Shown: positions 1,107-4,953 of the stretch, piece by piece
Position numbering within the stretch: the stretch's first letter is position 1
Layout: every line of letters starts with the position of its first letter
Virus record (IMG/VR): IMGVR_UViG_2654587711_000004
Length of the DNA stretch: 4,953 bases
Strand: one strand, 5' to 3'
Source: a virus
Taxonomy: Duplodnaviria; Heunggongvirae; Uroviricota; Caudoviricetes
Program-made: the position numbers and the translations under genes
Notes under the pieces: generated by a model
Told to the model about the DNA's origin: nothing
The model's database searches: none
What the model saw: only the letters and a program-made list of their open reading frames with translations

Positions 1107-1601
1107 ATGGCTGGAACGGCGGGGCGTTCCGGGCGTCGCCCCAAGCCAACGGCGCGCAAGGCGCTGGCCGGAAACCCCGGCAAGCGAGCCCTGAACAAAG
1201 ATGAACCTGTTTTTACGCCCATCAAAGGTGTTGAGCCACCAGAGTGGTTCGCTGAAGAAGATCTCCCTCTCGCCACGATCATGTGGCAACTGACAACCAA
1301 AGAACTCTGCGGTCAGGGCCTGCTGTGCGTGACTGACCTGGCGGTACTTGAGCGGTGGTGCGTGGCCTATGAGTTCTGGCGACGTGCCGTGAAAAATATT
1401 GCCATACAGGGCAACACCATCACCGGTGCAATGGGCGGCAGGGTCAAAAATCCGGAGCTGACCGCCAAAAAAGAACAGGAGTCCGAGATGAGCAGCACGG
1501 GGGCAATGCTCGGACTCGACCCCAGCAGCCGCCAGCGTCTGATTGGCCTGGCGGGGCAGAAGAAAGCCACTAACCCGTTTCTGAAAATTATCGAATCATG
1601 A
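1107..1601 (+). CDS. terS: Terminase small subunit (P27/HK97-type TerS)
   Basis: ORF ending at TGA 1599-1601; the preferred start is ATG 1107, with AGGAG at 1094-1098 (8-nt spacer), rather than the GTG 1098 of the ORF track. Basic N-terminus ([13 protein letters not shown]) typical of DNA-binding TerS; stop overlaps the terL start (ATGA). Confidence 0.85.
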
Positions 1602-3331
1602 GCCGGAAATCTTACCCCAACGTAAATGCTGCAAATCAGTATGCCCGGGATGTCGTGCGCGGAAAGATTGTTGCCTGCCAGTTTGTGATTCAGGCCTGCC
1701 AGCGCCATCTTGATGACCTGATGGCGGAAAAAAGTAAGTCGTTTCGTTACCGCTTCGACAAGGACCTGGCTGAACGGGCCGCGAAATTTATTCAGCTGTT
1801 GCCGCACACCAAGGGGGAGTGGGCATTCAAACGGATGCCCATCACGCTGGAGCCGTGGCAGCTATTTGTGATCTGCTGTGCGTTTGGCTGGGTCAATAAA
1901 GGCACCCGGTTGCGCCGCTTCCGGGAGGTGTACACCGAAATCCCCCGTAAGAACGGCAAATCAGCAATCTCTGCCGGTGTTGCCCTGTATTGTTTTGCCT
2001 GTGATAACGAGTTTGGCGCGGAAGTGTATTCCGGTGCCACGACAGAGAAACAGGCGTGGGAAGTCTTTCGCCCGGCGCGACTGATGTGTAAACGCACACC
2101 CATGCTGACGGAAGCGTTCGGGATTGAGGTTAACGCCTCAAACATGAACCGTCCGGAGGATGGCGCGCGGTTTGAACCGCTGATCGGCAACCCAGGTGAT
2201 GGTTCATCACCCCACTGTGCCGTGGTTGATGAATATCACGAGCATGCCACCGATGCGCTTTATACCACAATGCTTACCGGGATGGGGGCGCGACGTCAGC
2301 CACTGATGTGGGCCATCACCACCGCCGGGTACAACATTGAGGGGCCGTGCTACGACAAGCGGCGGGAAGTCATCGAGATGCTCAACGGCTCGGTGCCTAA
2401 CGATGAACTGTTCGGGATCATCTATACCGTTGATGAAGGTGACGACTGGACCGGCCCGCAGGTGCTGGAAAAAGCCAATCCAAATATTGGCGTGTCGGTT
2501 TATCGCGAATTTTTGTTAAGTCAGCAGCAGCGTGCGAAAAATAACGCCCGTCTGGCAAACGTCTTTAAAACAAAACACCTCAATATCTGGGTGTCGGCGC
2601 GTTCGGCGTATTTCAACTTGGTGAGCTGGCAGAGCTGCGAGGATAAATCACTGACCCTTGAGCAGTTCGAGGGGCAGCCGTGCATTCTGGCCTTTGACCT
2701 GGCGCGTAAGCTGGATATGAACAGCATGGCGCGACTTTATACCCGCGAGATTGACGGTAAAACGCATTACTACAGTGTGGCCCCGCGTTTCTGGGTACCG
2801 TATGACACGGTGTACAGCGTCGAGAAAAATGAAGATCGACGGACAGCCGAACGCTTTCAGAAATGGGTGGAAATGGGCGTTCTGACCGTTACCGATGGTG
2901 CGGAGGTGGATTATCGCTACATCCTCGAGGAGGCCAAAGCGGCGAACAAAATCAGCCCGGTCAGTGAGTCACCCATCGACCCCTTCGGGGCGACCGGGTT
3001 GTCACATGACCTTGCTGATGAAGACCTGAATCCCGTCACTATCGTCCAGAACTTCACCAATATGTCCGATCCGATGAAAGAGCTGGAAGCAGCGATTGAA
3101 TCGGGACGTTTTCATCATGACGGCAATCCCATCATGACCTGGTGTATCGGCAACGTGGTCGGCAAAAACATGCCGGGTAACGATGATGTGGTGAAACCCG
3201 TCAAAGAGCAGGCGGAAAACAAAATCGATGGTGCAGTTGCGCTGATTATGGCGGTTGGCAGAGCCATGCTGTACGAGAAAGAAGACACGCTGTCTGACCA
3301 CATTGAGTCCTACGGGATCCGCTCGCTTTAA
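1598..3331 (+). CDS. terL: Terminase large subunit (ATPase + nuclease)
   Basis: 577-aa ORF. Walker A-like PRKNGKS and Walker B-like CAVVDEYHE lie in the N-terminal half, with acidic nuclease-type motifs (ILAFDLARK...) in the C-terminal half. Start ATG 1598 is coupled to the terS stop. Confidence 0.95.
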
Positions 3332-3342
3332 CTGAGGTAATT

Positions 3343-3525
3343 ATGATCATGCTGATTCTCGCGCCTCTGGTGGGCGTGCTGGGTGCGCTTTTGCTGGCGT
3401 ATGGTGCCTGGCTGATTTATCCCCCGGCGGGTTTTGTTGTTGCCGGGGCGCTGTGCCTGTTCTGGTCGTGGCTGGTGGCGCGATATCTCGACCGTACACG
3501 GCAGTCTGTCGGCGGAGGTAAATAG
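3343..3525 (+). CDS. Small hypothetical membrane protein (60 aa, two predicted TM helices)
   Basis: ATG 3343 with GAGGT 7 nt upstream. Translation [60 protein letters not shown] has two hydrophobic stretches and a basic tail, with E. coli-like codon usage (CTG/GCG/GTG rich). It fills the terL-portal gap; no family recognised. Confidence 0.5.
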
Positions 3526-4681
3526 TGTTCTTTTCGGGATTATTTCAACGAAAAAGCGATGTGCCGGTGACCACGCCAGCAGAACTGCTGATGCTATCGG
3601 GCTGTCATACGACACCTATACCGGAAAGCGGATCAGTAGCCAGCGGGCCATGCGCCTGACGGCGGTCTATTCTTGCGTCAGGGTGCTGGCAGAGTCTGTT
3701 GGTATGCTGCCCTGCAGTCTCTACAAAATCAGCGGTACCCTGAAAACACGGGCGGTGGATGAACGACTGCATAAGTTGGTTTCGGCAAAACCTAATGGCT
3801 ACATGACACCGCAGGAATTCTGGGAGCTGGTTATTGTCTGCCTGTGTCTACGGGGGAATTTTTACGCCTACAAGGTAAAGGCACTGGGAGAAGTGGTGGA
3901 GCTTCTTCCGATAGATCCGGGCTGTGTGGAACCGAAGCTGAACAGCCAGTGGCAGCCGGTTTATCAGGTGACGTTTCCGGATGGTTCCGTGGATGTGTTG
4001 ACCCAGAATGAAATCTGGCATGTGCGCCCCCTGACGCTGGATGGACTTGTCGGGCTGAATCCCATTGCGTATGCGCGTGAGGCCATTTCACTGGCAGCGG
4101 CAACCGAGGAGCACGGTGCCAGGTTGTTTAGTAATGGTGCGGTGACATCCGGTGTGTTGCGTACGGAACAAAAGCTCACGCCGGATGCTTACGAGCGTCT
4201 GAAGAAAGATTTTGAGGAGTGTCACACGGGGCTTGGCAATGCTCACCGCCCGATGATTCTGGAAATGGGGCTGGACTGGAAGTCGATGGCGCTGAACGCC
4301 GAGGACAGTCAGTTCCTGGAAACCCGCAAGTTTCAGCTGGAAGAAATCTGTCGTCTGTTCCGGGTGCCGTTGCACATGGTGCAGAACACCGATCGCGCCA
4401 CCTTCAACAATATCGAAGAGCTGGGGCTGGGATTTATCAACTATTCACTGGTGCCGTATCTGACCCGCATCGAACAGCGGATCAACACCGGACTGGTACG
4501 AAAAAGTAAGCAGGGCGTTTATTACGCCAAATTTAACGCCGGGGCGTTACTGCGCGGGGATATGAAGTCCCGTTTTGAAGCCTACGCCACCGGGATCAAC
4601 TGGGGAATTTACTCTTCCAATGACTGCCGCGACCTGGAAGATATGAATCCGCGTCCCGGTGGTGTAATGCCGATCAGTTAA
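3525..4681 (+). CDS. Phage portal protein, HK97 family; apparently disrupted (N-terminal codons in a different frame from the body; 3' end abuts an IS4 end)
   Basis: Body frame (open 3434..4681) contains portal-like sequence (...AMRLTAVYSCVRVLAESVGMLPCSLYK...). It has no ATG/GTG start between the upstream gene and ATG 3650, and its only upstream starts (TTG 3434/3437/3440) lie inside the small ORF without an RBS. The other frame has GGAGG (3514-3518) then GTG 3525 encoding (M)FFSGLFQRKSDVPVTTPAEL..., a typical portal N-terminus, which hits TGA at 3657. The last codons (..GG VMPIS*) appear to be read from IS sequence. Confidence 0.7.
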
Positions 4682-4713
4682 GGATCAGTTGACCGATCCA
4701 GTGGCTGTGTAAG

Positions 4714-4748
4714 AATCCGGAAACGCTCACTTGTTTCCGGATTTTTTT
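4714..4748 (+). terminator. Hairpin plus T7 run immediately upstream of the transposase start codon (intrinsic-terminator-like; probably insulates the transposase from read-through)
   Basis: ATCCGGAAAC (4714-4723) and GTTTCCGGAT (4733-4742) form a perfect 10-bp stem with a 9-nt loop, followed by a 7-T run through 4748; the transposase ATG is at 4749 with no evident Shine-Dalgarno. Confidence 0.5.
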
Positions 4749-4953
4749 ATGCACATTGGACAGGCTCTTGATCTGGTATCCCGTTACGATTCTCTGCGTA
4801 ACCCACTGACTTCTCTGGGGGATTACCTCGACCCCGAACTCATCTCTCGTTGCCTTGCCGAATCAGGTACTGTAACGCTACGCAAGCGCCGTCTTCCCCT
4901 CGAAATGATGGTCTGGTGTATTGTTGGCATGGCGCTTGAGCGTAAAGAACCTC
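4749..4953 (+). CDS. insG: IS4 transposase, N-terminal fragment (ORF runs off the window end)
   Basis: ATG 4749; the 68 codons visible give MHIGQALDLVSRYDSLRNPLTSLGDYLDPELISRCLAESGTVTLRKRRLPLEMMVWCIVGMALERKEP with no stop, recognised from memory as IS4 transposase (InsG). Confidence 0.8.
   Translation, partial: MHIGQALDLVSRYDSLRNPLTSLGDYLDPELISRCLAESGTVTLRKRRLPLEMMVWCIVGMALERKEP

Follow-up and report, generated by a model that had tools for sequence, protein, structure and literature searches.

We analysed a 4,953-nucleotide (nt) stretch of tailed-phage DNA (IMG/VR virus record IMGVR_UViG_2654587711_000004; Caudoviricetes), called the window below at its full length, and focused on a 60-codon gene that lies between the gene for the large terminase subunit (terL) and the portal gene. 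According to the list of open reading frames (ORFs) and to Pfam and NCBIfam matches, the window is the start of the late operon of a P27/ST64B/e14-type prophage with an HK97-type head. An earlier note, made from the letters of the DNA, had proposed a small gene with its own ribosome-binding site (RBS) between terL and portal, and this was borne out by an ORF at 3343-3525 preceded by GAGG at 3334-3337. The feature as then drawn starts at 3332, the first base past the terL stop, and the ATG is at 3343. The ORF is almost certainly an orthologue of ymfR and a genuine protein-coding gene of PHROG 502. The gene, the parts of its predicted product and its borders with the two neighbours are as follows:

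3343..3525, + strand: ymfR coding sequence, 60 codons plus TAG (ORF list; PHROG 502; RefSeq 'protein YmfR' at the homologous position)
3334..3337, + strand: Shine-Dalgarno sequence GAGG of ymfR, 5 nt before the ATG
3346..3417, + strand: predicted transmembrane (TM) helix 1, residues 2-25 (hydropathy, AlphaFold2), with near-invariant G14 and G21 and conserved W23
3418..3432, + strand: turn of the hairpin, Y26-P-P-A-G30, where the family is most conserved; predicted to lie on the periplasmic side
3433..3486, + strand: predicted TM helix 2, residues 31-48 (hydropathy, AlphaFold2), with invariant G35 and a basic residue at 47
3487..3522, + strand: variable basic tail, residues 49-60, predicted cytoplasmic; its sequence is essentially unconstrained
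3514..3518, + strand: Shine-Dalgarno sequence GGAGG of portal, inside ymfR codons G58-G59 (from the sequence)
3523-3525, + strand: ymfR stop codon TAG, overlapping the portal GTG at 3525-3527 (TAGTG; from the sequence)
1598..3331, + strand: terL (Pfam TerL_ATPase, E = 8e-26; TerL_nuclease, E = 4e-33; the annotation of relatives agrees)
3329-3331, + strand: terL stop codon TAA, 11 nt ahead of the ymfR ATG
3525..4664, + strand: portal gene, HK97 family (Pfam Phage_portal, E = 1e-106; TIGR01537), disrupted in this copy

The gaps on the two sides of ymfR are therefore 11 nt to terL and -1 nt to portal. In an alignment of the window with Escherichia coli ZJ3920, K-12 e14 and phiP27, the GAGG site was invariant, and the annotations of E. 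coli ZJ3920, K-12 and phiP27 (RefSeq/GenBank) place the portal start at the GTG of 3525. The TAGTG overlap of the ymfR stop with the portal start, also described in the earlier note, is real, but the portal frame behind it is frameshifted in this copy and stops at 3659.

The window protein matched PHROG 502, described as 'membrane protein', with E = 2.8e-28, residues 1-55 aligning with profile positions 3-57/58. The region 3200-3700 matched 1599 of 5426 complete E. coli genomes at 90-96% DNA identity, and the matching regions were annotated 'ymfR: protein YmfR' between 'terminase large subunit' and 'phage portal protein'. Over the same 3200-3700 interval, DNA identity to ymfR-annotated regions was 95-96%, K-12 derivatives included; in the latter the gene is ymfR of e14, a cryptic prophage, and its neighbours on the two sides, terL and portal, are both truncated. 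The gene is also known as L37 of phiP27 (NP_543089) and as sb3 of ST64B, and is carried by SfI, SfII and SfIV; the window protein is 98% identical to phiP27 L37. YmfR of K-12 e14, phiP27 L37 and ST64B Sb3 share with the window protein the same length of 60 amino acids (aa), 97-98% protein identity, the GAGG-ATG start, the TAGTG overlap and the terL-ymfR-portal order, and only tail residues 53-54 differ. The copies differ in their surroundings: in K-12 both neighbours of ymfR are truncated pseudogenes, whereas in the window terL is whole and portal carries a frameshift and an IS4 insertion. The gene had been described as unassigned, which did not hold, given its annotation in those 1599 E. coli genomes and in phiP27, ST64B, SfI and SfII; ymfR is an already named and known gene, and the observation re-finds it.

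Searches of general family and structure resources returned no relative. Pfam and NCBIfam held no model for YmfR and gave only sub-threshold matches to unrelated membrane families, a sequence search of the PDB found no relative (best E = 0.033, generic membrane proteins), Foldseek against the PDB gave no match to the YmfR model, and no Rfam family matched the ymfR region. Some database labels of homologues were misleading. In records H29, H35, H41 and H42, YmfR homologues are mislabelled 'head-tail joining protein W', apparently after lambda gene W, which has the same place in its own genome, and the Joint Genome Institute (JGI) tags some family members 'cytochrome c oxidase subunit IV', which is a mis-annotation. 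Lambda gpW is encoded by a small gene between terminase gene A and portal gene B and is a soluble head-completion (head-tail joining) protein. YmfR gave no match to Pfam gpW (PF02831) at E <= 1 and is a hydrophobic hairpin, unlike the soluble gpW.

The window holds 54 ORFs of at least 30 aa, so that a 60-codon ORF is not significant by size alone, and the status of ymfR as a gene follows from cross-species conservation instead of ORF length. We compared codons 1-49 with divergent copies from Mangrovibacter, Scandinavium and Citrobacter (60-65% protein identity). The ratio of nonsynonymous to synonymous substitution rates (dN/dS) was 0.11-0.30 at dS 0.6-1.8, and the proportions of changed synonymous sites (pS, 0.40-0.68) exceeded those of changed nonsynonymous sites (pN, 0.12-0.20; Fisher p 1e-3 to 3e-8). 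The neighbouring genes were more tightly constrained (dN/dS 0.04-0.07). In 72 distinct loci selected through the portal gene, ymfR diversity was 0.255 at third codon positions vs 0.102 at positions 1+2, a pattern close to that of portal in the same loci (0.303 vs 0.062). The ORF was open at 52-71 codons over hundreds of divergent sequences. Two minus-strand ORFs, at 3328-3615 and 3347-3499, were set aside as incidental, the variation by codon position fitting the + frame.

These results bear on the view that the ORF is a chance reading frame in a conserved intergenic or regulatory stretch and not a gene at all, to which we assign practically no weight. Short ORFs are common in the window, as noted, and loci selected through ymfR itself had looked like an island of nucleotide conservation, with diversity of 0.011-0.028 over ymfR and dS far below that of portal, which raised the suspicion of an RNA element or a recombination linker. 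The island was gone in the portal-selected loci and was thus a sampling artefact; the mainly synonymous substitutions, the frame held open in hundreds of sequences and the lack of an Rfam family all speak against a chance ORF. The conservation check proposed in the earlier note therefore came out in favour of a real gene, the ORF and not the nucleotides alone being conserved.

We then considered how widely the gene is distributed and whether it keeps its place. A profile search of 1.84 billion cluster representatives (cut-off E <= 1e-3) found 403 cluster representatives, nearly all 45-110 aa long and sharing the motif G..G......G.W..YPPAGFI..G, and 134 of 134 aligned family members matched PHROG 502. 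Named sources, all of them Gamma- or Betaproteobacteria, included Escherichia, Salmonella, Citrobacter, Klebsiella, Enterobacter, Yersinia, Hafnia, Serratia, Gilliamella, Marinobacter and Polynucleobacter. Remote loci were located by a degenerate DNA scan for the YGAW..YPPAG motif or by direct look-up. A portal homologue followed in all 15 remote loci with enough downstream sequence, and terL lay upstream in 13. The remote members P0163, P0258, P0132 and P0199 had terL on one side and a Phage_portal gene on the other, the genes overlapping or almost abutting, and the protease downstream of these four loci was of the S78 or S49 type. Among 77 viral contigs picked by portal similarity alone (72-100% identity), an intact family member stood directly upstream of portal in every one. 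Cultured carriers were Vibrio phage K324, Stutzerimonas phage PG1 and Ralstonia phage YO192_1, found in a small sample with related portals.

The statement that the terL-portal junction of HK97-type modules is free of other genes was right for HK97 itself but wrong for this large group of phages of Gamma- and Betaproteobacteria and for phage Sfi21, which has a DUF1056 gene in that place. The absence of ymfR from HK97 and several of its relatives marks it as an accessory and not a core component. These results indicate that ymfR is an accessory conserved within one lineage of HK97-type head modules and not one-off cargo. Two other phages carried different genes in or near the slot. Streptococcus phage Javan49 (L315 1131-2027) has a DinJ/RelE-type toxin-antitoxin pair and a 90-aa ORF between terL and portal, which shows that the terL-portal junction can hold true cargo. 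In Brucella phage BiPBO1 (L309 3267-3467), a 66-aa hydrophilic ORF lies between portal and a Clp-type protease gene; this is another gene in another slot.

The insertion in Javan49 is one of the points that could be raised for ymfR as a moron, that is, a lysogenic-conversion or superinfection-exclusion gene expressed from the prophage and inserted by chance between terL and portal. The PHROGs category of family 502 is 'moron, auxiliary metabolic gene and host takeover', a category probably given because of the words 'membrane protein', and ymfR has stayed intact in two decayed prophages, K-12 e14 and that of the window. A 60-codon gene, however, easily outlasts prophage decay by chance, and many frameshifted copies occur in genome data, so that there is no sign of maintenance at the level of the host. 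On the + strand near 3332-3525, a crude consensus scan, which is a weak test, found no sigma-70-like promoter and no intrinsic terminator, and the flanking gaps of 11 nt and -1 nt leave no space for either. The composition of ymfR equals that of its neighbours: the fraction of G+C (GC) at third codon positions was 0.667 vs 0.648 in both terL and portal, and the higher overall GC (0.61 vs 0.54 in the neighbours) is due to its Gly/Ala/Leu-rich sequence. The presence in 77 of 77 portal-selected relatives and in the same slot in distant Proteobacteria is the opposite of the patchy distribution of morons.

Expression also argues against a moron. In K-12, ymfR is induced together with other e14 genes: its RNA rose by a log2 fold change of 4.5 along with ymfJ, ymfL, ymfM, ymfQ and tfaP on e14 induction alongside the SOS response (PMC10012262). 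The defence-system search with PADLOC gave no model match for YmfR or three remote relatives, save one at chance level (E = 0.23). A known moron makes the difference plain. Among the tail genes of HK97, the moron gp15 occurs as a sporadic insertion, and its product is an inner-membrane protein for superinfection exclusion; YmfR resembles that product in being small and predicted to lie in the inner membrane, but its gene has no promoter of its own and keeps a fixed position across deep divergence. We consider the moron explanation very unlikely, and the suggestion of a moron or superinfection-exclusion gene in the earlier note did not stand up against the missing promoter and terminator, the absence of a compositional break, the fixed position and the co-induction with e14. 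Its other suggestion, a phage accessory, fits better than a moron, except that many phages carry the gene, not a single one. YmfR is probably an accessory of the lytic cycle.

The predicted protein is almost wholly hydrophobic, with a grand average of hydropathy (GRAVY) of 1.16. Kyte-Doolittle means over a 15-residue window were up to 2.7 in residues 2-25 and ~2.2 in residues 30-47, followed by a basic tail. AlphaFold2, run with the 134-sequence alignment, gave a helical hairpin with helices at residues 2-25 and 27-56 and a mean predicted local distance difference test (pLDDT) score of 83.7. The two TM helices predicted in the earlier note were thus recovered by hydropathy and by the AlphaFold2 hairpin. 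Across the family, the conserved residues were G14 (96%), G21 (99%), W23 (86%), P28 (85%), A29 (82%), G30 (91%), G35 (100%) and R/K47 (77%), and Y26 was also conserved; conservation sits in the membrane-embedded hairpin and the turn, not in the soluble part. The mean number of lysines and arginines per sequence was 2.0 before helix 1, 0.18 in the turn and 2.4 after helix 2. Because basic residues lie at both ends and are scarce in the turn, both ends of YmfR are predicted from the sequence to be in the cytoplasm, with the YPPAG turn at the periplasmic face.

The tail showed no such constraint. In the portal-selected loci, tail codons 50-60 had a diversity of 0.349 at positions 1+2 vs 0.361 at the third position, and the tail differs between subgroups, with only G58 and G59 invariant in the enterobacterial alignment. 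This C-terminal 'GG' is conserved because it encodes the GGAGG RBS of portal, a constraint at the RNA level that resembles protein conservation. Four natural tandem duplications were found in the family (P0155, P0172, P0187 and P0242), each 102-122 aa long with four helices in two hairpins, and the tandem-duplicated P0155 (L098) also lies directly upstream of portal. Going by their sequences, the tandem duplicates fit, and so suggest, a functional unit of at least two parallel hairpins.

The relation of ymfR to portal tended to be closer than to terL. In the portal-selected loci, nucleotide diversity was ~0.25 in the last part of terL but 0.13-0.15 within ymfR, as low as in portal. When 98 distinct loci were compared, YmfR divergence followed that of portal with a Spearman coefficient of 0.89 (partial r 0.73), vs 0.77 (partial 0.27) for terL. 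In Klebsiella michiganensis (L010), ymfR and portal were 63% and 86% identical beside a terL only 37% identical. An exclusive ymfR-portal linkage was nevertheless rejected, since recombination joints occur on both sides of ymfR; the linkage is a tendency only. The shared late operon, the TAGTG overlap and the portal RBS inside ymfR imply the same mRNA as terL and portal and lead us to expect translational coupling to portal. From this arrangement of the genes, ymfR is expected to be co-transcribed with terL and portal and translationally coupled to portal.

Such coupling could in principle be the whole function. The ORF would then be a spacer with an irrelevant peptide that sets the terL:portal ratio, its hydrophobicity being incidental or serving mRNA targeting only. 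This accords with the tight or overlapping junctions at both ends in all lineages, with the weak GTG start of portal and its RBS inside ymfR, and with tail codons that are free at the amino-acid level except for the RBS-encoding GG. It does not accord with purifying selection on codons 1-49 (dN/dS 0.1-0.3), with the retention of G35 (100%), G21 (99%), G14 (96%), G30 (91%), W23 and P28 down to ~30-35% identity, or with HK97, which couples terL to portal directly and has no spacer. We therefore regard a mere spacer as highly improbable.

On balance we lean, with moderate confidence, towards ymfR as a lineage-specific accessory of the HK97-type head module that encodes a membrane hairpin coupled to portal. 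During lytic growth, YmfR would insert in the inner membrane as a two-helix hairpin, and it may form a dimer or higher oligomer packed through small residues, the glycines of both helices. The oligomer is proposed because of the conserved glycines G14, G21, G30 and G35 with the aromatic/proline turn, the unconstrained tail and the natural four-helix duplicates. YmfR would then tie portal synthesis, or the initiation of the portal ring or prohead, to the inner membrane, either by binding portal directly or by a route in which insertion of the hairpin during translation carries the coupled mRNA to the membrane. This portal-at-the-membrane mechanism is tentative, and we think it more doubtful than the accessory role itself. 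A more specific version is less probable again: a glycine-packed YmfR oligomer in the inner membrane, and perhaps likewise one of DUF1056 in Gram-positive phages, might recruit nascent portal made from the coupled start on an mRNA kept at the membrane, so that the portal ring or prohead would be initiated on the membrane in one HK97-type lineage. If that speculation were true, T4, whose head assembly begins bound to the membrane and depends on gp40, would have a hitherto unrecognised counterpart.

Membrane proteins at the portal have precedents in other phages. T4 gp40 is a membrane protein that aids the gp20 portal in starting head assembly on the inner membrane. PRD1 P20 and P22 are small integral membrane proteins of the packaging vertex (PMC5850374). 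Both are functional precedents, and any likeness of YmfR to them is hypothetical and by function only. T4 gene 40 is not adjacent to the portal gene, unlike ymfR, and PRD1 has an internal membrane, which tailed phages do not.

A closer parallel in position comes from Streptococcus phage Sfi21, whose orf59c (L306 2424-2603) encodes a DUF1056 (PF06341) protein of 59 aa with two hydrophobic helices and lysines at the N-terminus and in the tail. It occupies the same terL-portal slot; the portal there is of the HK97 type, and the genes for the prohead protease and the major capsid protein come after it. DUF1056 is without the YPPAG/glycine motif of YmfR. The comparison of DUF1056 with the YmfR family gave an hhalign probability of 0.45%, with low sensitivity because the DUF1056 profile is shallow (sequences 83-100% identical). 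Pfam DUF1056 did not match YmfR or the 134 family members, and a full-text literature search found no mention of DUF1056. Judged by sequence comparison, we treat DUF1056 as analogous to YmfR in position and architecture, although the two may be related too remotely for detection.

YmfR could instead be a late membrane effector unrelated to head assembly, which would oligomerise in the inner membrane or bind a membrane protein of the host and act on lysis timing as a holin- or antiholin-like helper, on membrane potential, or as a block to DNA entry by superinfecting or progeny phage, so that its position would reflect timing and dosage only. In shape it is like class II holins and small exclusion proteins (~60 aa, two TM helices, cytoplasmic ends and a basic tail, all as predicted); class II holins such as S21 share with YmfR, on prediction, the two-helix topology, the cytoplasmic ends and the charged C-terminus. 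The conserved residues all lie in the membrane or the periplasmic turn while the soluble tail is free to vary, which suggests a target within the membrane, and many related head modules do without ymfR. Holins, however, stand in lysis cassettes beside the endolysin gene, and the genes upstream in the window include lysis genes:

116-592, + strand: Rz (PF03245, E = 3e-52)
348-530, + strand: Rz1, embedded in Rz in the +1 frame (ORF list)
635-985: HNH endonuclease gene (profile match)
1098-1601: gene for the P27-family small terminase subunit, terS (profile match)

The gene ymfR is 2.7 kb from Rz/Rz1, with the HNH gene, terS and terL between them. HNH and terS follow directly on the lysis cassette. 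The layout is the same in phiP27, whose annotation puts a cos site between these two genes. The separate cassette (Rz/Rz1 at 116-592; with endolysin in phiP27) counts against a lysis function for YmfR. Neither YmfR nor the 134 family members matched the holin families of Pfam, and the late effector is not supported by any Pfam holin or PADLOC model match for YmfR. The fixed portal-adjacent slot, held at ~30-35% protein identity and with S78 or S49 proteases, would be unusual for an exclusion or lysis-accessory gene, since such genes tend to change place and be replaced, and YmfR divergence tracks portal divergence. We judge the late effector to be rather unlikely, though the strongest of the rival views.

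Several observations weigh against the accessory hairpin and the portal-linked mechanism built on it. In the small sample of cultured phages, portal comes straight after terL, with no gene between, in HK97, PotUPM1, Xanthomonas phage L522, Stenotrophomonas phage QH1, Brucella phage BiPBO1, Bacillus phage Gamma and two Clostridia phages; HK97-type heads are thus built without the gene, and YmfR cannot be essential for portal function generally. Among locus pairs, 62 shared ymfR and terL with a diverged portal vs 4 that showed the reverse, which sets joints on both sides of the gene, although the pairs are not independent. The tail, which is the only soluble part of YmfR, is unconserved, and this argues against a conserved direct contact with portal; targeting of mRNA to the membrane alone would not require the conserved YPPAG/glycine motif. 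The AlphaFold2 model of one tandem-duplicated member had a pLDDT of 65.7 and is too uncertain to use. The promoter and terminator scan was a crude consensus test, the K-12 RNA sequencing data stem from a cryptic prophage, and a full-text literature search for ymfR and b1150 found gene lists and one RNA-sequencing table only, with no functional test of ymfR.

The prophage copy in the window has decayed around ymfR. Compared with relatives, portal is without one base near 3587 (GAGCTGGCGGA -> GAACT-GCTGA), and the frame from GTG 3525 ends at 3659, the remainder of portal continuing in the frame of the ORF at 3434-4681. The 1-nt deletion is common to four IMG/VR contigs (L017-L020), and 205 other loci are intact; a deletion shared by four contigs indicates a lineage-specific frameshift and not a one-off sequencing error. 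Positions ~4646-4953 are 98% identical to IS4, and homology to portal ends at ~4664. The portal frameshift and the IS4 in the 3' end of portal indicate that the prophage is defective, and terL and ymfR are still intact despite the broken portal. Near-identical DNA is filed as a 'Bacillota bacterium' metagenome-assembled genome, as Edwardsiella hoshinae NBRC 105699 and as 'Enterococcus phage Efm 3-10' (a 1764-bp record) (L005, L007 and H28); these three filings are likely contamination or mis-binning.

Annotators should drop both 'head-tail joining protein W' and 'moron' as labels of PHROG 502. For phage biology, the place between terL and portal is kept, in phages of distant Proteobacteria, by a membrane hairpin of 50-70 residues whose motif is sharply conserved, and in Streptococcus phages by the unrelated-looking DUF1056, of the same size and shape. 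The K-12 copy and the inducible phages phiP27, ST64B and SfII are easy to manipulate genetically, so that the question of what YmfR does could be settled cheaply. Should YmfR link portal or prohead assembly to the membrane, the model of HK97 assembly would gain a membrane step; should it prove to be a late membrane effector, the catalogue of small membrane proteins of phages would gain a widespread member.

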